Shown here in pieces: positions 1,904 to 62,123 of a stretch of DNA of 64,000 nucleotides. Under the pieces are notes generated by a model, which saw only the letters and a list, made by a program, of their open reading frames with translations, was not told where the DNA came from and made no database searches. The position numbers were made by a program, and so were the translations under genes. The stretch comes from Bacteroidota bacterium (GTDB lineage: Bacteria > Bacteroidota > Bacteroidia > Chitinophagales > LD1), in the NCBI GenBank assembly GCA_947475165.1, contig CANJLD010000007.1:83131-147130 (forward strand), written 5' to 3'. Each line of letters starts with the position of its first letter. The first letter of the stretch is position 1.

Positions 1904-3196
1904 TTATGTTTCTTTAAGAAAATCGCAAATAGCGGTATACACTTTCTTTAAATCAGCATCGGAAATGCAGTAAGGGGGAAGAATATAAATCACATTACCC
2001 AATGGACGAAGAATTATTTTTTGTTGAATAAAGAACTGATAGGCTTTATCGCGAATATTGTTGAGGTAGCCGCTTGATTCATCCGTTTTTAACTCAATAG
2101 CTACAATAGTTCCGCGCATTCTAATTTCTTTTACACGCGCATTACCTTTTAAGTTCTCTGCAAATTTTGAATGATGAAATTCTATTCTTGAAATATTCTC
2201 AAATGTATTTTCAGTTTCAAATAAATCTATGCTGGCAACAGCAGCAACACAGCCAAGCGGGTTTGCCGTGTAACTATGTCCGTGAAAAAACAATTTATAT
2301 TTTTCATCGGATAGAAATACATCGTAAATTTTTTGTGTGCAAGTGGTTGCTGCAAAAGGAAGAAACCCACCGGTAATTCCCTTTGAAAGGCAAACGATAT
2401 CGGGCTTATTCTCACAGTAATCCGTAGCCAGAAATTTACCGGTTCTGCCAAAGCCTGTCATTACTTCATCGGCAATGGTGAGGATGTTGTTTTGCTTGCA
2501 AATAGAAATCAGTTTATCTAAAGCACTTTCTGAATACATCAACATTCCTGCTGAACCAAGTATAAGCGGTTCAAAAATGAAAGCGGCAATTTCCGAATTT
2601 CTGAATTTCCGAATTTCCGAATTCAACTGTTCGACAACTTCAATTTCATTCTCATTATTCGGTGTGTCAATAAACACCACATCAAAAAGCAGGTTTTGAA
2701 ACGGCTGAGTAAAAACTCCTCGTGCGCTTACGCTCATGCTTCCGAAGGTATCGCCATGATATGCATCGCGAAAGCAAATTATTTTTTTGCGCACTTCGCC
2801 TTGATTGCTCCAATACTGAAGTGCCATTTTAATAGCTACTTCAACGGCTGTTGAGCCATTATCGGAGTAGAATATTTTATTATGATAAGGGATTCGCTTC
2901 AATAGTTGTTCGGCAAGTTGTTCGGCAGGTTCGTGTGTAAAGCCTGCAAATATTACATGCTCGAGCTTCTTTGCTTGTTCCGCAATTGCATTAGCAATAA
3001 CTGGATGGGCATGTCCGTGAAGGTTAGTCCACCAACTGGCAACGGCATCTATGTATTGTTCTCCGTTTTCATCATACAGATAAGTTCCTTCGCCACGCAC
3101 AATGGGAATTATTTCCGCGTTTTTCATTTGCGTGTACGGATGCCACACGGGAGAATTTTTACTTTTTAATTTTGAATTTTGAATTAGCGCGCTCAT
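1904..3196 (-). CDS. bioA: Adenosylmethionine-8-amino-7-oxononanoate aminotransferase
   Basis: 430-aa class III aminotransferase with WHPYTQM at the N-terminus, a DEVMTGFGRTG motif and a CLSKGITGG PLP-lysine region. It is the last gene of a bio operon, with a 4-nt overlap with bioD. Confidence 0.93.
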   Translation of the reverse strand: MSALIQNSKLKSKNSPVWHPYTQMKNAEIIPIVRGEGTYLYDENGEQYIDAVASWWTNLHGHAHPVIANAIAEQAKKLEHVIFAGFTHEPAEQLAEQLLKRIPYHNKIFYSDNGSTAVEVAIKMALQYWSNQGEVRKKIICFRDAYHGDTFGSMSVSARGVFTQPFQNLLFDVVFIDTPNNENEIEVVEQLNSEIRKFRNSEIAAFIFEPLILGSAGMLMYSESALDKLISICKQNNILTIADEVMTGFGRTGKFLATDYCENKPDIVCLSKGITGGFLPFAATTCTQKIYDVFLSDEKYKLFFHGHSYTANPLGCVAAVASIDLFETENTFENISRIEFHHSKFAENLKGNARVKEIRMRGTIVAIELKTDESSGYLNNIRDKAYQFFIQQKIILRPLGNVIYILPPYCISDADLKKVYTAICDFLKET

Positions 3197-6975: not shown

Positions 6976-7835
6976 CCTAAATATTTAGCAGCGATGTAAA
7001 CAAATACAAATTGAAGGATCATCATACCATCCAGCACAAAATAATACCATAGTTCGGAAGTTTCTTCTCTCAGCGGTTGAATACAAAATATGGAAATCAG
7101 CAGGGAAAGATTTACCGCCAGCATATTCATGAGCGAAATATCGAAGAAGAAATATTGTACGAGGTTGATGAGGATGAGCGCAAACAAGGTGAGTTGCGCA
7201 ATAAGTTTTGTGTTTGATACACCAAAAATGAGAGGTAGGGTTTTTAATCCGTATTCTTCATCGTTCTTCATATCTTTTATTTCAAACACCATGGTAAGTG
7301 CAAGAACAAAAAGAAATCTGCGGAGCAACAGAAACACCAACATGCTTGGCTCTACAAAACTATTCCTCAGAGGAACAATAACCGTAGTAACCGACCACAC
7401 AACAGCTACAAAGAATATTTTTAGCAGGCCGAAATCGCGGAGCTTTCTTTTGGGGCTTGTAAAAGGAATATCCACAAAACCATAGAGCGCGGTGAACGCT
7501 GCAAGAACGGCCAGGATAATTTCCGTTTTCATTTTCAGCTGAAAGAAAAAACAGACTGTAACCAGAAGCGACAGCAGCAAAACATTTTTTGCCAGCTGAA
7601 TATACTTTACCGCCCAGTACCGGTGACCGGTAGAAGGGATTGTATTTTCTGAATTGTGAAATTTGAGATAAGAATAAGTGAAGATGGTAGCAAACAAAAC
7701 AAACCAGCAACTCACATCAAACTGAATATCGCCTTCAACGGTTAACTGATTGGTAAACGTAAGCGCAACTGCACATACACCAATGAAAATATTGGAGTAG
7801 AGAATAAAGTCCAAAGCTGCGCGGAGTTGTTTCAT
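6972..7835 (-). CDS. Polytopic membrane protein, UbiA-prenyltransferase-like (degenerate)
   Basis: 287 aa with about 8 hydrophobic segments. KDMKNDEEYGLKTLPL resembles the second Asp-rich motif of the UbiA family. I did not see a clear first NxxxDxxxD motif. Both neighbours overlap it by 4 nt. Confidence 0.45.
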   Translation of the reverse strand: MKQLRAALDFILYSNIFIGVCAVALTFTNQLTVEGDIQFDVSCWFVLFATIFTYSYLKFHNSENTIPSTGHRYWAVKYIQLAKNVLLLSLLVTVCFFFQLKMKTEIILAVLAAFTALYGFVDIPFTSPKRKLRDFGLLKIFFVAVVWSVTTVIVPLRNSFVEPSMLVFLLLRRFLFVLALTMVFEIKDMKNDEEYGLKTLPLIFGVSNTKLIAQLTLFALILINLVQYFFFDISLMNMLAVNLSLLISIFCIQPLREETSELWYYFVLDGMMILQFVFVYIAAKYLG

Positions 7836-25671: not shown

Positions 25672-28161
25672 TTATTTTTTCGGTTTGTATGTTCCAGTAA
25701 ATAATTTCTTCCATCGTAACTCATCGCCCGGATGCGTGAAATTTGTTTCAAAGTATTCGCCTCTAGCCCAGGTAGAAACCATGTTGTCGTAAAATTTGCT
25801 GCCCGGGTTGCCCGATTGTCCACCTGGATAAACTACAAAAGCTTTCATGCTGCCCTCATCTACAATCATTCGCCATGATGGACCGTGTGTTGCGTTGGTC
25901 GCATTAATAATTCCGATGTTGCCTCCGTTGTAAACGTTCAAACTGCTGAACGCTTCCTGTTTGCCCAGGTGTGCAATTCTTGTTGCCTTATGTGTTCCCC
26001 AATCGGTAACAGAATCAGGGTGATGGTATTTAGCCATAATGTTTTGCATGGCTAACTGAAACGAGTAGGTAACAGTTTCGTTCCGGTTCTCTTTTTGTCG
26101 CGTTGCTTTAATGTCGTAAAACTCACTGGTGCTATCCGTCTGCAACAATTGAATAGTAACAACCTGGTTCGGGCGTTTCATGGGGTTGTTGGGGTCTAGC
26201 ATTTCATCCCATAACCAATCGCGCAAAGTGCTCCACCATTCTTCAAAATAAACTGCCGCTTTCGAATCGGGGTTGTCGTAGTAATCCCATGTTCTCATTT
26301 TTTCAATAGCTGGTTTAAAAGCAGAATTGATTTGGCTCATGTCAAGGCAACTCAACATAACAGGCAATACTTCCTGCGCAAACAAATTGTAATTGTCGTT
26401 CTGCATCTTCTTCATAAACTCCACATCAATTTCTTTTCCATCGGCAAGAATTTTATTGATGCTCCTGTTGCGGAACTGCTCGTAAACACCAACACCGGGA
26501 TAGTAATATGGATAAGTAGAATCGGTAGGGTGTTGATTGGCACTACTCACAAAACCACGTTCCGGATTTACACTCAAAGGATTTACATCAGCAGGAATAA
26601 AATCTGTCCACTCATCTTTAGACGTTGTTCCGTCACTCAAAAATTTTCCCTGTTCGGTTGCTTTGTTGCGGATAGGAAACAAGCCCTGCTCCTTAATAGC
26701 CACATCGCCACTTCGCGATGCAAAAACAAAATTCTGTGCAGGACAGGTGTAAGTTTTCAAAGCGTTGGTATAATCGGTGTAATTCTTTCCTTGGTTCAAT
26801 AAGTAAAATGTTTTGAATTCGTTAGAAGGAAGGTGAGCCGTCCAGCGCATAGCGAGAAATTTTTTGTTTTCAGCAACTCCAAAATTTTCATCAAACACCA
26901 CCGGTCCAAAGCGCGTGTAAAGAACCGTTTCTATGTATTCTTTTCCACCGCGAACCTTGTAATGCTCTTCGCGCTTTTCTGTTTTCAGCCAAGCACCATT
27001 GTATTCATATTCATTCTTCGAATCATCTTTAAACTTCAGTTTATACCAATCGCGCACATCGCGTCCCGCGTTGGTAACACCCCAGGAAATAGAATCGTTA
27101 AACCCAATAATCACAGCCGGTGAACCGGGAAGCGTTGCTCCATAAACATTCATTGTAGGAGAAACCAAATGCATCTCATACCAAATAGAAGGAAGTGAAA
27201 GCTGCAAGTGCGGGTCGTTACAAAGAATAGGTTTCCCGCTTTTTGTTTTCGAACCACTAACCGCCCAATTGTTCGAGCCGTTTATCTCATCAGGCTTTTG
27301 CAATGCATTTGCATAAGTTTCTGGTTTCTGGTTTCTGGTTTCGAGTTTGGCTGTTGTTTCGTGTTTCGTATTTGGTGTTTCGTATTTCGTTCCAATAGGA
27401 ACAATCGGGTCATCGCCCGCCCAGTAATCGGGGTAGAGTTTTCTGAAATTCTCTTCGCCAAACTTTGCAATGAAGTTCGTGTTCTCAATATCATATTCAT
27501 AAACCGAAAGCATGTTTGCCATGTTCTTTAACAGCAAAGCCACTTTAATCGGTTGCCACTCTTCGGGCGAATAGTCGAGCAGTTTATATTCGAGCGGATA
27601 ATCTTTCGGATTCAAATTTTTGATGTAAGCGTTTACACCTTTGCAATACGCGTCAATTAGTTTCTTGCTTTCGGGGTCTTTGGCAATGTATTCCTGCGCG
27701 GCTTCGGCACCGTATTGCATTCCTATTCTTCGTTGTAGCCGGTCGCTCTCTAATGCTTTTTCTCCCGCAACTTCGCTTACTCTTCCTGCCGCATTATGCG
27801 TTTGCACTTCCATTTGCCACAAGCGGAATTTGGCGGTGATATAGCCCTGCATGTAATAAAGGTCTTCATCGTTCTTCGCAAATATGTGAGGTACCAACCG
27901 GTCATCGAAATAAACTTTTACTTCTTCTTTCAATCCATCAAGGTTGGCTTCTTCATCTTTCCAGGTTTTTACATTCTCTGCATTCTGCCAAAAACCGGTA
28001 AACGGATTTAGAAATTTTCCGAACGGAGGAATCTGCCCGATTTTAGAATTGAGCGCGACAATTAATGCAAGTGTTATGCTGAGCGAGAGAAAGAGTTTGA
28101 AATATTTCACAGCGTAAAATTTTGTGTGAAGGTATTTATTTGAAGAATTTGCCGAAGCCAA
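25672..28161 (-). CDS. Penicillin/AHL acylase family Ntn-hydrolase
   Basis: 829 aa with an N-terminal anchor. A spacer is followed by GSNNWAVSG, the nucleophile Ser at the beta-subunit N-terminus. The length and motifs fit peptidase family S45. Confidence 0.85.
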   Translation of the reverse strand: MASANSSNKYLHTKFYAVKYFKLFLSLSITLALIVALNSKIGQIPPFGKFLNPFTGFWQNAENVKTWKDEEANLDGLKEEVKVYFDDRLVPHIFAKNDEDLYYMQGYITAKFRLWQMEVQTHNAAGRVSEVAGEKALESDRLQRRIGMQYGAEAAQEYIAKDPESKKLIDAYCKGVNAYIKNLNPKDYPLEYKLLDYSPEEWQPIKVALLLKNMANMLSVYEYDIENTNFIAKFGEENFRKLYPDYWAGDDPIVPIGTKYETPNTKHETTAKLETRNQKPETYANALQKPDEINGSNNWAVSGSKTKSGKPILCNDPHLQLSLPSIWYEMHLVSPTMNVYGATLPGSPAVIIGFNDSISWGVTNAGRDVRDWYKLKFKDDSKNEYEYNGAWLKTEKREEHYKVRGGKEYIETVLYTRFGPVVFDENFGVAENKKFLAMRWTAHLPSNEFKTFYLLNQGKNYTDYTNALKTYTCPAQNFVFASRSGDVAIKEQGLFPIRNKATEQGKFLSDGTTSKDEWTDFIPADVNPLSVNPERGFVSSANQHPTDSTYPYYYPGVGVYEQFRNRSINKILADGKEIDVEFMKKMQNDNYNLFAQEVLPVMLSCLDMSQINSAFKPAIEKMRTWDYYDNPDSKAAVYFEEWWSTLRDWLWDEMLDPNNPMKRPNQVVTIQLLQTDSTSEFYDIKATRQKENRNETVTYSFQLAMQNIMAKYHHPDSVTDWGTHKATRIAHLGKQEAFSSLNVYNGGNIGIINATNATHGPSWRMIVDEGSMKAFVVYPGGQSGNPGSKFYDNMVSTWARGEYFETNFTHPGDELRWKKLFTGTYKPKK

Positions 28162-39179: not shown

Positions 39180-39264
39180 TAAGATTAGGTTTATTGTATA
39201 AAATAATGATTTTTTAATAAAAAATGCAAGTTTTTAAGGTTTTTTAAAGCCTAAGGAACTTAGA

Positions 39265-39432
39265 AGTGCGAACTCTTAAGTTAGAAGTATTAACTTTCAA
39301 TTTTAAAGTTCGAACTTTAAAAATAAGAGTATGAACTTTTGTTTTAAAAGTAAGAACTTCTAAGTTAAGAGTAAGAACTTCTAAGTTAAGAGTAAGAACT
39401 TTTAACTTAAAAGTAAGGACTTTTAACTTAAA
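39265..39432. repeat. Eight head-to-tail 21-bp repeats (consensus AGTAAGAACTTCTAAGTTAAG)
   Basis: Units start at 39265, 39286, 39307, 39328, 39349, 39370, 39391 and 39412. Units 5 and 6 are identical. Weaker degenerate units flank the array, from about 39223 to about 39445. Confidence 0.9.
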
Positions 39433-39522
39433 AATCCTTACTTCTAAGTCTCTGCCTAATGGCAGAAAGCCAAAAACTCTTGCTGTAAAATTTATAAAAA
39501 TGGATGATTTCAGGAAATATTT

Positions 39523-56503: not shown

Positions 56504-58387
56504 TTACTCTAAATCATATTGAAGTTTAAGCAAATTACTGTAAAGCCCATCACTCATTCGCGAAAGCTCGGTATGCGTTCCCTGCTCAACAATCTTTCCT
56601 TTATTAATTACCAGAATTACATCGGCTTCACGAATGGTAGATAAACGGTGAGCAATAATAAATGTTGTCCGGTTCTTCATCAGATCGTTCAATGCTTCTT
56701 TTACTAACTTCTCACTTTCAGAATCAAGTGCGGAAGTTGCTTCGTCCAGAATTAAAATCTTAGGGTCGCGGAGGATGGCGCGGGCAATGGCAATGCGTTG
56801 CTTTTGTCCGCCTGATATTTTTACTCCCCGCTCCCCAACAATCGTATCCATCTTTTCAGGGAACGATTCAATAAAACTAAGAGCGTTTGCTTTTCGCGCT
56901 GCGGTTATAATTTCTTCTTCGGTGGCATTTGTTTTTCCGTAAGCAATGTTTTCTCGAATGGTTCCTCCAAATAAAATTGTGTCCTGAGGAACGGTGCCAA
57001 AGTTTTTGCGGAGTGCGGTAATATTATAATCACGAATTCCTTTTCCGTCAATCAGAATATCGCCTTGGCTGAAAGGATAAAGACCGCTCAATAATTTAAT
57101 GATGGTTGATTTACCCGAACCGCTTGGTCCTACAAGCGCAATCTTCTGTCCGGCTTTTACTTTAAATGAAAGGTCGTTAAACAGAAGCGTGTCTTTGCGC
57201 GAAGGATAGGCGAAGTGAATATTCTTATACTCCACTTCACCGCGCACCGGTGATGAAAGACCTTCATCTTCTGTTTTTGTTTCACCGGTTTCTCCCAGTA
57301 TTTCATTAACCCGTTCCGATGCGCCTATTGTTTTTTGCAACACAGTATAGCTTTCACTTAAACCAGCTAACGAACTACCTATAAAGAGAGTAAGCAAGAA
57401 AAACTGAATCAAATCGCCCATTGATATTTTCCCTTGCGCTACTTCATTCAGGCCTGCATAAACTATAAATACAATTGCACCAAACATGGCGAAGATGATG
57501 AACGAAACAAACCCTGCGCGGTACTTTGCCGCATACATTCCAATAGTGGCTACGCTCTGACTAATCTTCGAATATCTCCTTGTTTCATATGCTTCATTAG
57601 TAAATGCTTTTACCACATCAATAGCAGTAAAGGTTTCTTCTACAATGGTATTGCTCTCTGCTAGCTCGTCCTGCGCTTTGCGCGAAATTTTTCGAATGAA
57701 CCTTCCGAAAATTACTGCTGCAATTACCAGCACCGGCAGCAGTGCAAGAATTATCATCGTCAACTTTACAGATACTGCAAGTATGAAAGGAATGCATACA
57801 ATTGGCAGCACTAACTGTCGCACAAAAAAAGCGAGTTGATTCGTCAACGCATCTTGCAATTGCGAAACATCAGATGAAATTCTTGAAGTCAGATTCCCTA
57901 CTCTGTTTTCTTCAAAGAATTGAATAGGCAGGGTTATTATTTTCTCATACAATGCTTTTCGAATGGCACTCATCGCATTCTGACTTACATATTCAAATAA
58001 GTAAATACGGAAGAAAGAAAGAACTGCCTGAATCAATAACACAATTCCCAGTATCTCTCCAATCTCTTTTAGTTTTTCAGGAGAAATTTCGGAAGAGTAG
58101 CTGCTTACAGCAGTGGTTATCTGCGCAATTTTTTCTTCTGCGCTGGCTGTTGATTTTACAACATCCGATACTTTGCTGATAACTTCTTTAGTAGGTGAAG
58201 CAGCGTCTACTAACTTACCAAATCCACCGGGAATAAAACTGACCACACCGGTAGAAACAACCAGGCAAATCATGCCGATAATAAAATGCCATTTGTAGGG
58301 AAGAATGAAGCGGTAAATACGCAACGCCTCAACAATTTCTTTGCGGCTTATTCTTTTTTTCTTTTCCGGTTCGGCAGTTTCAGACAT
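56504..58387 (-). CDS. ABC transporter, fused permease/ATPase (MsbA/exporter type)
   Basis: 627 aa with six TM helices. Walker A is GPSGSGKST, the signature is ISGGQKQR and Walker B is ILILDEATSALD. A first extracytoplasmic loop of about 50 aa is rich in Ser/Ala/Glu. Confidence 0.9.
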   Translation of the reverse strand: MSETAEPEKKKRISRKEIVEALRIYRFILPYKWHFIIGMICLVVSTGVVSFIPGGFGKLVDAASPTKEVISKVSDVVKSTASAEEKIAQITTAVSSYSSEISPEKLKEIGEILGIVLLIQAVLSFFRIYLFEYVSQNAMSAIRKALYEKIITLPIQFFEENRVGNLTSRISSDVSQLQDALTNQLAFFVRQLVLPIVCIPFILAVSVKLTMIILALLPVLVIAAVIFGRFIRKISRKAQDELAESNTIVEETFTAIDVVKAFTNEAYETRRYSKISQSVATIGMYAAKYRAGFVSFIIFAMFGAIVFIVYAGLNEVAQGKISMGDLIQFFLLTLFIGSSLAGLSESYTVLQKTIGASERVNEILGETGETKTEDEGLSSPVRGEVEYKNIHFAYPSRKDTLLFNDLSFKVKAGQKIALVGPSGSGKSTIIKLLSGLYPFSQGDILIDGKGIRDYNITALRKNFGTVPQDTILFGGTIRENIAYGKTNATEEEIITAARKANALSFIESFPEKMDTIVGERGVKISGGQKQRIAIARAILRDPKILILDEATSALDSESEKLVKEALNDLMKNRTTFIIAHRLSTIREADVILVINKGKIVEQGTHTELSRMSDGLYSNLLKLQYDLE

Positions 58388-58493
58388 GGAGGTGCAAATG
58401 TATCAGAGTAAGTGAAATGCTACAGATGAAACATCGGTAACTTTCAGTAAGTCGAAATAATGAAGGGGATATTTTACCAGTTAGGGTTCGGCT

Positions 58494-58533
58494 AAAAAAA
58501 CAAAGTGGTCGCTCTTGCGAACGACCAACTTTG
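58494..58533 (-). terminator. Rho-independent terminator of rplT
   Basis: On the minus strand the sequence reads AAAGTTGGTCGTTCGCAAGAGCGACCACTTTGTTTTTTT, an imperfect hairpin followed by a T-run. Confidence 0.7.
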
Positions 58534-58561
58534 AACCTATGAAAACACTAAAAGTTGGAAT

Positions 58562-58906
58562 CTATTTTACTTTGCTTACAACCGCTTTAAACGCTTCGGG
58601 GTTGTTAAGGGCTAAATCGGCAAGAACTTTACGGTTCAATTCGATGTTTGCTGAGGCAAGTTTATTGATAAATCTTGAATAAGTCAAGCCCTCTTCGCGC
58701 ACTGCCGCGTTAATACGTGTAATCCAAAGAGCGCGGTAATCTCTCTTTTTAAGTTTACGGCCTACATACGAGTAAACACCTGCTTTTTCAACAGCATTTT
58801 TTGCTACCGTATAAACTTTACTGCGGCTAAGGAAATACCCTTTGGCTTTGTCAAGTATCTTTTTTCTTCTCTTTCTGCTGGCTACTGCGTTGGTTGAACG
58901 TGGCAT
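58562..58906 (-). CDS. rplT: 50S ribosomal protein L20
   Basis: 114 aa: [22 protein letters not shown]...[12 protein letters not shown]. Confidence 0.97.
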
Positions 58907-58943
58907 TTTCTATTATTTTTTTCGGTTATTGTTTCTTAAAATA

Positions 58944-59141
58944 TTAAGCCAATCCAAGCATCAGTTTTACTCTGTGCTCATCGCTTTTGTGAACTACGGT
59001 TGACTTAGCAAGTTCTTCTTTTCTTTTCTTGCTTTTGCTGCCCAGCAAGTGACGCTTATACGCCTTGCCGCGCTTTATTTTACCCGAGCCGGTTACTTTG
59101 AAACGCTTCTTAGCTCCGGAATTTGTTTTCATTTTAGGCAT
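58944..59141 (-). CDS. rpmI: 50S ribosomal protein L35
   Basis: 65 aa: [24 protein letters not shown]...HLL. Confidence 0.95.
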
Positions 59142-59163
59142 AAATCTTTCTTTTTTGGGAGCG

Positions 59164-59194
59164 CAAATATATCCATACTTTCTACAAAACCAAA
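59164..59194 (-). promoter_or_regulatory. Candidate Bacteroidota sigma-A promoter for rpmI-rplT
   Basis: On the minus strand, TTTG (59194-59191) is followed by 19 nt and then TATATTTG (59171-59164). This matches the -33 TTTG / -7 TAnnTTTG consensus. The -7 box ends 22 nt before the rpmI ATG. Confidence 0.4.
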
Positions 59195-59580
59195 TCGTTT
59201 TTAGATAGTAGTAAACTACAGGTTATGGATAGCGAAGCAGGTCGCTTGGGGATAAATGATTGGTACGCAAAAGACATAAATAAGGTTCGGAACAGGCAAT
59301 GCTTTATTACTGTATAAAGCGAAAAGCGTATTCCGATAAACTGTTTGCCCGATAGCAGGCAGAAACAGCAGATTTCGAAGAACTATCCGCTGTTTCTGAA
59401 AATACAAATTTAGCTATCGCAGGTATAAAATCTGCATCGGGTGCAACAACTGTAACCCAAAGTGCTAAGAATGTAACTTTCGAAGACACGTCTTTAACCT
59501 CTTCTGCTAATTTTGATATAAGGGTTAGTGTAAAGCCTCTGAGGTCTGTCATTTAGGAATAGCCGGAAGCGGGAAATGTG

Positions 59581-59840
59581 CTCTGGGATATAACCGGTGC
59601 TGTTACGGTCATAACCGCCCATTTTACAGCCATAACTTCCTATGTTACGCCCGTAACTGCCACTGTTACGGTTATAACTTCCCAAGTTACGCTCGTAACA
59701 GCCTAGGTTACGCTCGTAACTGCCCTGGTTACAAATGGCTTTTCCCAAAGAACAAATGCTTCTTCCCACACAGTTTTCTTTGTTTCCTAATGTGCTTTTA
59801 TGGCTTCCGTGAGAACTTTCTTGTCTTCCACCTGGGCTTT
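59581..59840. repeat. 21-nt-phased repeat array with palindromic core GTTACG-NN-CGTAAC
   Basis: GTTAC (or TTTAC) recurs at 59602, 59623, 59644, 59665, 59686, 59707 and 59728. A TTCC/TGCC element stays in the same 21-nt phase out to 59826 (59637, 59679, 59742, 59763, 59784, 59805, 59826). Confidence 0.85.
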
Positions 59841-59919
59841 GGTGGCAGAGTGGGAATATGTTTTAGATTTGGGAAGAATACCCAACTGTTTTAGTTTGAC
59901 CGATGAAACACTATCTTAA

Positions 59920-60336
59920 ATGATTTCAAACACCTTAAAGTATGCGACTAAAGTATGGTTGACGAGTGTTTTACTTTCACCGTTTGTCTTCCTGTTGTTT
60001 ATGGGGACTGTTGACGCACAAAAATTGCAGACAGAAGCTATTGGTACGGGCGGCTTTGTCTTCTTTTCCCTTCTTTTTGGTTTTGTTTTATCAATTCCAA
60101 ATTGGATAGTCTTTGTTTTTGTTACAAGGTTCATAAACAGAAAATTTTCTGCTCACCCGCAAAAGAAACTGCCCCTTGCAATAGCAGGGATGATGCTTAC
60201 TTACATTTTGTTTGCTCTTGTATTTTTTAGCGATGGGGTTAGAGGACAACAAATTTTTCATTTGCTACTGTTAACGGCTTATTGCTCTACTATAGGAGCG
60301 GGAGCAGTTCTCTATAAATTAAAGCCTGATGAATGA
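59920..60336 (+). CDS. Small integral membrane protein (4 predicted TM helices)
   Basis: 138-aa hydrophobic ORF with no recognisable motif. Confidence 0.4.
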   Translation: MISNTLKYATKVWLTSVLLSPFVFLLFMGTVDAQKLQTEAIGTGGFVFFSLLFGFVLSIPNWIVFVFVTRFINRKFSAHPQKKLPLAIAGMMLTYILFALVFFSDGVRGQQIFHLLLLTAYCSTIGAGAVLYKLKPDE

Positions 60337-60344
60337 GATGTTTC

Positions 60345-61610
60345 TTACTCCCTCACCAACATCTGAATAGTAGTTCTTGAAATCTGCCGCACCAGAATGT
60401 CTTTGTCCTTGGTAAGCTTATCAATAATGCCCTGGTTGTAGTGGCGTATGGTGAGCAGCGAAAGATTATCGTTGCGCGTAATGCTGAAATCGTTTTTCAG
60501 TGCGTCAATTACGTTCTCAATTTTCTCTTTCTTAAAATCAACGGCAATCGAAAAGCTGATAGCCGCGTTCTGCATCATATTAATACGCAGGCGGTTTTCG
60601 GCAAAGGTGGCAAACACCTTGCTCAGGTGGTCTTCGGCAATAAATGAAAAATCGTTGGCCGAAAAGGAGAGGAGCACCTGCTGGCGTTTCCAGATAATAA
60701 CCGGTGGCAGAAAATTGGTGTTGGCGTTGGCGCTTATCACCGAGCCGCGCTTGCCGCTGTTTACAAACGAGCGCACCTCAAGGGGAATATTTTTATTCTG
60801 AATGGGCTTAATCGTTTTCGGGTGAATAACACTCGCTCCGTAGTAAGTCATTTCAATAGCCTCATGAAAAGTCAACTCGCTTATAAACTGCGCATCGGCA
60901 AACTCCTTCGGGTCGGCATTCATAATTCCTTCCACATCTTTCCAAACCGTCATGCGCTCGGCACCGAGCGAGTAAGCAAAAATAGAAGCGGTGTAATCGG
61001 AACCCTCGCGACCGAGCGTAGCGGCAAAGCCTTCGGGCGTGCTGCCCACAAAACCCTGCGTAATAACGAAACCGGTCTTTACCAGTTCAGTAACTTTATC
61101 GCTGATGGCTTTTTCGGTCTTTGCAAAATCAACCTTGCCTTCGGTATAAGCGTTGTCGGTAAACAGCACTTCTTTTACATCGAGCAACGTATTTTTTAAG
61201 CCTATGGAATTGGCGTAGTCGCTTACAATGGTGGTGGAGATATACTCACCGATAGAAACAATCTGGTCGTAGATGTAATTGTAATTGCGCGAACTGTTTT
61301 CTTTCAGAAATTTACGACCGGCTTCAATCAGCTTCTTTACATCTTCAACCGCTTTTGTTTTATCGCTGCTGCCGTAAAGCTCGTTGATGATAGCTACGTG
61401 TTTATCAAACAAGCCATCCAATGCTTTTTCCCAATCTGCTTTACCGGCATAGTAAAGATTGATAACGTTCTCCAACTCGTTAGTGCTTTTACCCATAGCT
61501 GAGATAACCACTACCTTTTCGTTGAAGTTGTTTTCTTTTAAAATAGAAGTAACATTTTTTACTGCTGCTGCATCTTTAACAGATGCTCCACCAAATTTGT
61601 AAACCTGCAT
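60345..61610 (-). CDS. lysC: Aspartate kinase
   Basis: 421 aa with the N-terminus MQVYKFGGASV and motifs VVVISAMGKSTN and GREGSDYTA. The C-terminal region is ACT-like. Confidence 0.9.
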   Translation of the reverse strand: MQVYKFGGASVKDAAAVKNVTSILKENNFNEKVVVISAMGKSTNELENVINLYYAGKADWEKALDGLFDKHVAIINELYGSSDKTKAVEDVKKLIEAGRKFLKENSSRNYNYIYDQIVSIGEYISTTIVSDYANSIGLKNTLLDVKEVLFTDNAYTEGKVDFAKTEKAISDKVTELVKTGFVITQGFVGSTPEGFAATLGREGSDYTASIFAYSLGAERMTVWKDVEGIMNADPKEFADAQFISELTFHEAIEMTYYGASVIHPKTIKPIQNKNIPLEVRSFVNSGKRGSVISANANTNFLPPVIIWKRQQVLLSFSANDFSFIAEDHLSKVFATFAENRLRINMMQNAAISFSIAVDFKKEKIENVIDALKNDFSITRNDNLSLLTIRHYNQGIIDKLTKDKDILVRQISRTTIQMLVRE

Positions 61611-61631
61611 TGCTGATTTTAGATTTTAGAA

Positions 61632-62123
61632 TTATGATTTTTGATTTTCAAGATATGCGCTTATCTGGTCTTTATTCATCTTCACGGTAATCCAGTCCGG
61701 CTCAAAAGTTACGTTAAGCGATTTATAAAACTCTATAGCCGGTGTATTCCAGTTCAGCACCTGCCATCGAATTTCGTTTACGTGTTCTTCTTTCGCCACT
61801 TTCAAAAACTCGTTGATTAACTTTCTTCCTATACCAAACTGCCGGTGGCTTTCGGTAACCACTAAATCATCTAAGAAAAGCATCTTGCCTTTCCACGTAG
61901 AATAAGCAATATAGTAAAGCGCCATGCCTATTACTTCGTTAGTGTCTGCTGCCTCAGCAATAAACACTCTGTAAAGCGAATGTTTGCCAAAGCCGTCAGC
62001 CAGCAGCATTTTCTCGGTGTTTATTACTGCTTCGGGCGCGCGCTCAAACAAAGCAAGCTCGCGCACTAATTTCATAATGCCCGGAATATCTTTTTCATCG
62101 CCATGTCTGATAATAAAACTCAT
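61632..62123 (-). CDS. GNAT family N-acetyltransferase
   Basis: About 163 aa with the acetyl-CoA-binding motif RQFGIGRKL. I prefer the start at 62123 (MSFIIRHGDE); 62147 is possible. It lies 21 nt upstream of lysC. Confidence 0.8.
   Translation of the reverse strand: MSFIIRHGDEKDIPGIMKLVRELALFERAPEAVINTEKMLLADGFGKHSLYRVFIAEAADTNEVIGMALYYIAYSTWKGKMLFLDDLVVTESHRQFGIGRKLINEFLKVAKEEHVNEIRWQVLNWNTPAIEFYKSLNVTFEPDWITVKMNKDQISAYLENQKS

Follow-up and report, generated by a model that had tools for sequence, protein, structure and literature searches.

The stretch analyzed here, referred to as the window, comprises 64,000 nt of contig CANJLD010000007.1 from a Bacteroidota bacterium of the order Chitinophagales, and at 59581-59853 it contains a tandem array of about twelve 21-nt units, six of which carry a 14-nt palindrome. 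The array occupies a divergent intergenic region, with rpmI and rplT on the minus strand to its left and an orphan open reading frame (ORF) on the plus strand to its right; the orphan ORF is followed by an aspartokinase gene on the minus strand, whose product is 94% identical to its counterpart in a lake metagenome-assembled genome. An earlier note, made from the letters of the window alone, had placed the array in a gene-free gap upstream of rpmI-rplT. These genes do lie to its left, but the gap is divergent and one gene caller predicts an 81-aa orphan ORF within it. The distance from the array to the rpmI start is about 440-700 nt, and a canonical rpmI promoter lies in between.

Anatomy of the array and its lineage-specific setting

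Identity at a lag of 21 nt was 0.58 across the array, compared with 0.26 in shuffled sequences (z=12.3), and the periodicity stopped left of 59581 and right of 59853. Tandem Repeats Finder reported a period of 21 at 59601-59732 (6.3 copies, 71% matches) together with a 63-nt super-period over the array (80% matches). With periods of 21 and 63, the array corresponds to a minisatellite, defined as a unit of 10-100 bp repeated head to tail. Sites matching GTTACGNNCGTAAC with ≤2 mismatches numbered seven in the window, where 1.6 were expected and none of 100 shuffles reached seven; five of the seven are in phase (59602, 59644, 59665, 59686 and 59707), and three of these five are perfect 6+2+6 palindromes. 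The phased palindrome array described in the earlier note was thus confirmed, with one restriction: the perfect 6+6 core with a 2-nt spacer applies to three units, whereas the other three core units deviate from it (Table 1). Variants of the dyad are confined to inner arm positions, and GTTA and TAAC are invariant except for the first base of the dyad in unit 2, which is restored in a second haplotype.

The right-hand units have lost the dyad and remain periodic when taken alone. TTCC recurs at offset 14-17 of these units (59742, 59763, 59784, 59805 and 59826), continuing the phase at precisely the five positions that had been pointed out. Decay was said to proceed toward both ends; we found it rightward only, the left end consisting of one partial unit beyond which lag-21 identity falls to 0.26.

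Table 1. Coordinates of the array, its parts and the features around it, as positions in the window
Feature	Position	Strand	Basis or remark
Array core: six 21-nt units, each GTTACG-NN-CGTAAC (14-nt dyad) plus 7-nt spacer, consensus T-K-C-C-N-N-N	59602-59727	not stranded	three perfect, three with 1-3 mismatches
Left-most partial unit, retaining ATAAC alone; sharp left edge of the array	59581-59601	not stranded	lag-21 signal absent in 59500-59601
Decayed right units: five and a remnant, dyad gone	59728-59853	not stranded	lag-21 identity 0.50, z=5.6; TTCC simulation
Predicted Bacteroidetes-type promoter TTTG-N22-TAGATTTG, adjacent to the last decayed unit and oriented toward the orphan ORF	59838-59871	+	motif match only
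rpmI-rplT promoter TTTG-N19-TATATTTG, at the left homology limit	59164-59198	-	conserved in relatives, including those with other upstream neighbors
Orphan ORF with four transmembrane segments, 138 aa as read	59920-60336	+	own species alone in protein database, no homolog outside
Orphan ORF of 81 aa between array and rpmI	59307-59552	-	called by one pipeline, no homolog
Lineage-specific segment of 1.15 kb at a synteny breakpoint, holding the array, the orphan ORFs and the plus-strand promoter and excluding the rpmI promoter	59196-60344	not stranded	homology limits against relatives

The array is part of a segment that is specific to its lineage. On the aspartokinase side, DNA homology to relatives stops at 60338-60344, which is the aspartokinase stop codon, and on the rpmI side it stops at 59195-59203, the -33 box of the rpmI promoter. 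Neither rpmI, rplT nor the orphan ORF was found around aspartokinase in 76 related loci, and the segment had no protein-level match in any fetched related locus. The upstream neighbor of rpmI varies among related species, being a gene with LTD and type IX secretion system (T9SS) domains, another gene, or the segment itself, and the gene 3′ of aspartokinase is different in nearly every relative; because of these differing neighbors, both flanks appear to be rearrangement hot spots. Relatives usually carry the LTD/Por_Secre_tail gene (568-575 aa) 80 bp from rpmI. The earlier note had allowed that a normal gene in related genomes might have decayed into the array. A gene does stand upstream of rpmI there, but the array region shares neither DNA nor protein similarity with it, and tblastn with four orthologs as well as tblastx of the whole segment against all fetched loci returned nothing, and a decayed remnant of this gene was rejected on these grounds.

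A second 21-nt palindrome-containing array, also mentioned in the earlier note, is indeed present at 39.3 kb. This sister array (39256-39449) consists of 21-nt units with a 6-2-6 dyad, GAACTT-NN-AAGTTC, and a 7-nt spacer, so that its geometry is that of the main array with another half-site. A 238-aa ORF with no match to any family lies 77-270 nt downstream of it and precedes a CotH/LTD adhesin gene. No further 21-nt arrays were found in about 18 kb beyond the window ends.

Phased motifs as candidate protein-binding sites

Conservation within the array is concentrated at particular positions. Among the six core units, the mean pairwise difference was 0.13 in the dyad arms and 0.48 in the centers and spacers (permutation p=0.0035, a value inflated because the dyad positions were defined after looking at the data). 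The five decayed units are 46% identical, the TTCC columns are the only invariant ones, and a matched simulation of neutral star decay gave P of about 0.003 for an invariant four-column run of this kind. These patterns argue that specific DNA positions, spaced every two helical turns, were preserved during the history of the array.

We tentatively favor the reading that the array is a non-coding minisatellite of phased dyad sites, in which the dyads and the TTCC motifs are, or recently were, binding sites for a dimeric protein on one face of the duplex; this is credible rather than probable. The 21-bp unit, in triplets of 63 bp, would have been amplified head to tail via replication slippage or unequal recombination, with the units on the left being younger and more uniform and those on the right older and decayed. 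The parts resisting decay would be DNA motifs, not codons, namely the 14-bp dyad (GTTA..-N..-..TAAC) in the six left units and a CC shared by the eleven full units and extended to TTCC in those nearest the promoter. Since 21 bp equal two helical turns, the recurring motifs would all face one side of the duplex, and position-specific conservation of motifs in helical phase makes a phased, cooperative platform for a dimeric DNA-binding protein the most likely activity. Such a platform, operator- or centromere-like, would stand directly upstream of the predicted promoter of an orphan membrane-protein gene. The arrangement expected of an operator array, helically phased dyads beside a promoter, was found at the locus (14-bp dyads every 21 bp next to the motif-predicted promoter at 59838-59871). 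The sister array, built to the same geometry with another half-site, also counts in favor of this reading. The dyad and phasing geometry, which the earlier note had found to fit a dimeric DNA-binding-protein site, is real, with arms better conserved than centers and spacers. The analysis established the anatomy of the array, its non-coding status, its lineage-specific location and its position-specific conservation, whereas binding by a protein, the identity of that protein and any effect on the promoter are inferred.

Several observations weigh against this reading, in addition to the inflated p-value given above. In the sampled DNA, we found neither a cognate regulator nor the motif at other promoters; no gene for a regulator or other DNA-binding protein adjoins the array, and the nearest helix-turn-helix gene seen is about 13 kb away. 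Elsewhere in the window, and across 708 kb of related genomes, the palindrome is no more frequent than chance would give, and a regulon is therefore not apparent. The whole segment is missing from the sister species, and any function of the array would therefore be young or dispensable. In addition, the sister array is a true variable-number tandem repeat (VNTR): across the loci compared (L237, L238, L239 and L240-L242), exactly one 21-nt unit is missing in two contigs of otherwise identical strains.

Comparison with a second haplotype (L105, which equals L184, as well as L183 and L185; 97.6% identical over 4.7 kb) adds a further point against binding. Divergence between the haplotypes is uneven: a 500-bp tract in an ABC transporter gene has 41 differences, while the remainder diverges by about 1.3%. 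Nearly all of the 41 differences in the tract (56750-57250, in a minus-strand gene at 56504-58387) are at third codon positions, and the tract was probably acquired by recombination from a more distantly related lineage. An apparent fivefold conservation of the whole gap relative to synonymous sites was inflated by this tract and was discarded once rates had been recomputed without it. With third codon positions outside the tract as the neutral proxy (0.034), the array has 8 changes against 9.3 expected at the synonymous-site rate, whereas both flanks are constrained (left, 5 changes against 13.1 expected, P=0.01; right, 3 against 16.7, P=5e-5), and the array accounts for half of the substitutions in the segment (P=0.02). 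Since its rate is that of the neutral proxy, the array as a whole is without detectable present constraint, unlike its surroundings. Moreover, one haplotype disrupts a TTCC and another changes a dyad. Copy number is the same in the two haplotypes (2.4% apart) and in more than eight contigs, with no unit gained or lost. Present-day constraint is weak, and the array may therefore be decaying.

Should the phased dyads and TTCC motifs bind a protein, the locus would represent a regulatory or architectural array in an uncultured freshwater lineage of Chitinophagales, for which almost no transcription-factor sites are known. A more speculative extension, which we consider distinctly unlikely, is that the lineage carries a family of promoter-upstream arrays built on one plan, a 6-2-6 dyad of 14 bp plus a 7-bp spacer with a half-site particular to each locus (GTTACG here, GAACTT at 39.3 kb). 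Each array would serve as a cooperative landing pad for a different dimeric DNA-binding protein of one family, and the expression of lineage-specific genes would be tuned as slippage adds or removes units. If the motifs do bind a protein, two arrays of the same geometry in 64 kb would suggest that one design is used repeatedly to control genes that were newly acquired.

Competing explanations

The main alternative is that the array is a functionless VNTR, in which slippage multiplied a 21-nt unit, palindromic by chance, within filler DNA that a rearrangement had left at its junction, and the copies now decay neutrally; this is possible, if on the unlikely side. Intergenic minisatellites and VNTR loci, such as MIRU-type loci, serve in multiple-locus VNTR analysis for strain typing, and the array resembles them in being head to tail and intergenic, in its higher-order period, and in having uniform units inside and a decayed edge. 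Divergence between the haplotypes at the synonymous-site rate fits this explanation, as does a lineage-specific segment at a breakpoint where the neighbors of aspartokinase and rpmI vary among relatives. The sister array differs by one whole unit among strains that are identical otherwise, and it is the point at which three short-read contigs break. Furthermore, a relative (L010) with a 91% identical aspartokinase has an unrelated 10-copy 21-nt array on the same side of that gene (7400-7620; 63-nt super-period), which is C/T-rich and non-palindromic (CCATCCGTCACTYCTCCGCTN), directly follows aspartokinase and precedes a T9SS adhesin-like gene of 620 aa. By chance or design, the L010 array is in frame with this adhesin-like gene. 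Repeat periods in multiples of seven are also over-represented in the lineage: in 0.9 Mb of Chitinophagales loci, Tandem Repeats Finder detected 26, 27, 18, 8 and 6 arrays with periods of 7, 14, 21, 42 and 63, compared with one each for periods of 20 and 22.

Neutral decay of a plain VNTR, however, predicts neither dyad arms more alike than spacers nor TTCC as the sole survivor at 46% identity, the copy number of the main array is constant in the available strains, and two arrays of 14+7 geometry in 64 kb would be unlikely if that geometry were irrelevant. If the array is a minisatellite only, its practical value is that of a strain marker, and it provides a warning that 21-nt repeats leave long "heptad" frames open in both directions and that such frames can pass for genes.

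We consider it improbable that the array was left behind by a mobile element as its former origin or centromere, namely an iteron or a parC/sopC-like site of an integrated plasmid or phage whose rep or par genes have since been lost. Its build is nevertheless iteron-like or centromere-like, with a dyad in each of 6-12 tandem units of about 21 bp; it stands in DNA foreign to the lineage, comparable dyad arrays occur in phage contigs, and both the decay and the neutral evolution are compatible with a relic. Iterons of theta plasmids and of the phage lambda origin are repeats of about 17-22 bp in 4-7 copies and in helical phase, those of lambda being dyads. The array shares this unit length, copy number, helical phasing and lambda-type symmetry, but an initiator gene, an AT-rich unwinding element and a cluster of DnaA boxes are all lacking nearby, the only DnaA box near it being a single one with one mismatch at 59247. 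Among plasmid centromeres, F sopC consists of a 43-bp unit directly repeated 12 times, with SopB binding to a 16-bp inverted repeat in every unit (PMC3177203), and parC/parH-type arrays offer a further comparison (PMC5016525, PMC3130281). These centromeres and the array have in common a dyad for a dimeric protein within every direct repeat, a period of whole helical turns and an adjacent promoter; the array differs in its 21-bp rather than 43-bp unit, its half-site, its chromosomal location and the lack of parA, parB, parR or any plasmid or phage context. Neither parA/parB nor parM/parR genes were found in the segment or among the flanking genes listed, and no rep, par, integrase or other recognizable gene was found in the segment. 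Likewise, the segment had no match in 50,697 phage or 72,556 plasmid records, its edges have no convincing terminal inverted or direct repeats and no tRNA, and its GC content equals that of its surroundings (0.40-0.45 across the region).

We likewise give little credence to a structured RNA. Transcribed on the minus strand, in the sense of rpmI, the array would form a row of hairpins with 5-bp stems and tetraloops, separated by single-stranded GGA/GGC linkers, and might act as a decoy for an RNA-binding protein. The minus strand does fold more strongly than the plus strand (-72.3 kcal/mol, z=-6.7, against -55.5 kcal/mol, z=-4.0), although any palindromic array folds well, which makes these z-scores uninformative. 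Every linker holds a GGA-type motif. In the CATAAC and TATAAC variants, G·U pairing preserves the 5-bp stem on the minus strand, whereas C·A mismatches result on the plus strand. This weak hint may trace to one ancestral G>A change that was copied by the 63-nt duplication. Against a transcript, no Bacteroidetes-type promoter was predicted upstream of the array on the minus strand and no terminator was found after it, the array is situated upstream of the rpmI promoter, which relatives retain independently, and it evolves at the neutral rate. The sole homolog of the array is the second haplotype, with its 8 changes, and relatives have no ortholog. Rfam 15 gave no relevant match for 58400-60400 even at E≤10. 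Bacteroidota are also not known to have CsrA, which speaks against this reading.

It is very improbable that the array is a minus-strand gene encoding heptad repeats, (G-S-Y-x-R-N-L)n, either as a live small ORF from the GTG at 59769 or as the remnant of a longer gene. The unit is palindromic and seven codons long, and for this reason several frames are open across the array; the two strands were translated correctly in the earlier note, including the "M" at 59769, which is a GTG. The minus frame (GSYERNL...) is open from 59877 to 59494. It contains no ATG, and its first start is the mid-array GTG, from which an ORF would lose half of the repeats. No contig with listed gene calls has one over the array. 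None of 5.8 billion proteins had a 5-residue word in common with the minus-frame peptide. When 1.8 billion representatives were searched exhaustively with phmmer, the only matches were translations of other tandem heptad repeats (e.g., VGNYSRN and LGLYARN), with no recognizable family among them, and Pfam and NCBIfam gave no match. A known repeat-protein family, which the earlier note held would reclassify the minus-strand ORF as an ordinary gene, was thus not recovered.

We also scored the frames with a 3-periodic Markov model trained on the genes of the window, in which scores were 7.0±3.1 for real genes and -17±6.6 for wrong frames. Of the six frames of the array, the minus frame scored best (+3.9 for all units, +5.7 for the core) and fell within the range of real genes, but column-permuted arrays equaled its score in 3-14% of trials (p=0.03-0.14). 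Variation between units leaned to third positions of this frame (0.40 against 0.22), although not significantly (p=0.115). Changes between haplotypes comprised about two synonymous and seven non-synonymous ones, including Gly>Val at a "conserved" glycine. In the decayed units, GGA-A is invariant including its wobble base while the next residue varies, a pattern that favors a DNA-level motif over a Gly codon. We therefore judge the array unlikely to be coding. Stop-codon recoding of plus frame 0, which has three in-frame stops that are all TAG, was dismissed since TAG ends 6 of the 47 ordinary genes of the window, including rplT.

Neighboring features and comparable arrays elsewhere

Full promoter matches in the gap were two only, the rpmI promoter and the plus-strand match at 59838-59871. 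A 13-bp indel in another haplotype at 59936-59948 affects the plus-strand orphan ORF, and the real start is therefore probably the ATG at 60001 (111 aa). From 60001 to 60336, two substitutions separate the haplotypes, both at third codon positions; the suggestion that the 138-aa ORF evolves without codon bias proved to be an artifact of the indel. The 81-aa ORF had a coding score of -0.9, between real genes and wrong frames. Neither orphan ORF of the segment has a recognized domain in Pfam or NCBIfam. A hairpin at 59360-59398, with 14-nt arms that are 93% complementary and an 11-nt loop, is situated inside the conserved left flank, overlaps the 81-aa ORF and is followed by a U-tail on neither strand; 59357-59573 is identical between haplotypes.

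rpmI-rplT has no infC upstream, here (58944-59203) or in relatives (L173-L182). An L20-type ribosomal leader or a long rpmI 5′ untranslated region was ruled out: a canonical promoter lies 23-57 nt upstream of the rpmI ATG and is the only part conserved in relatives, and Rfam was empty. A strong terminator-like hairpin follows rplT at 58506-58527 on the minus strand, and overlapping it at 58495-58548 is a weak, sub-threshold match to the Bacteroidetes FopS small RNA family (20.6 bits against a gathering score of 56).

The remark in the earlier note that no described element has this structure withstood searches of Rfam, Pfam and NCBIfam, which gave no match, and we found no paper on the motif. 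The array is outside every named family tested, but objects of its kind, bacterial tandem repeats that lie between genes and have operator-like units, are known. Repetitive extragenic palindromic (REP) sequences and bacterial interspersed mosaic elements (BIMEs) are extragenic, short, imperfect palindromes in regular clusters, with REPs occurring in more than 100 copies per genome and in alternating orientation (PMC2817692, PMC3333891). The array likewise consists of short, imperfect extragenic palindromes that are regularly clustered, but it is confined to a single locus within the 64 kb, the approximately 18 kb of flanks and the 708 kb of relatives, its units follow one another head to tail in strict 21-nt phase, and a RAYT gene was not seen. 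It differs from clustered regularly interspaced short palindromic repeats (CRISPR) in that its "spacers" are 7 nt long and themselves repeated, not unique.

A metagenome-wide scan for two such dyads at 21-nt spacing identified 90 loci, one of which is the second haplotype. More than 50 of the 90 belong to a dispersed, conserved intergenic element of rumen metagenomes, about 330 nt long and located beside unrelated housekeeping genes, which has 3-5 GTTAYG-NN-CRTAAC dyads in 21-nt phase with TATATAT spacers and no Rfam match; the remaining loci are assorted arrays, some of them coding. The rumen element shares with the main array the half-site, the 21-nt phase and the non-coding setting. It differs in its AT-only spacers, its multicopy context of about 330 nt and its organism, and outside the dyads there is no similarity between the two. 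Its loci lie within L083-L172 (e.g., L087:660-830 and L093:8260-8440), with up to three copies on contig Ga0247610_10000146 (L092, L127 and L132), and its borders are ...AAAAACCGTGTTTTTCAT and the terminator-like AAAGCCC-N-GGCTTTTTT.

Unrelated sequences from metagenomes and phages also contain GTTAC-N4-GTAAC-type dyads in tandem, and most of these lie in extended non-coding gaps; such common reuse of the dyad type counts in favor of the binding-site reading. In viral contigs their spacings are 17, 18, 19, 21, 23 and 30 nt; a universal 21-nt spacing for this dyad type was excluded, since viral spacings peak at 17-18 nt and 21 nt accounts for 6 of 73. A shared neighboring regulator at these arrays was rejected as well, as Pfam scans of 30, 72 and 10 flanking ORFs revealed no common family. 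In several IMG/VR phage contigs (L195, L200, L207, L208 and L215-L218), long stretches without coding sequence contain TGTTAYAWWTRTAACA dyads in tandem, spaced by 17, 19 or 30 nt. These arrays resemble operator or origin arrays, and the only Pfam matches among their neighbors are terminase and HNH endonuclease. Finally, short tandem repeats based on heptamers are common in the intergenic DNA of the Chitinophagales lineage, both in the window (61614-61657, 27316-27390 and 3153-3185) and in related loci (L082:9751-9931, L078:9543-9610 and L191:5840-5872).

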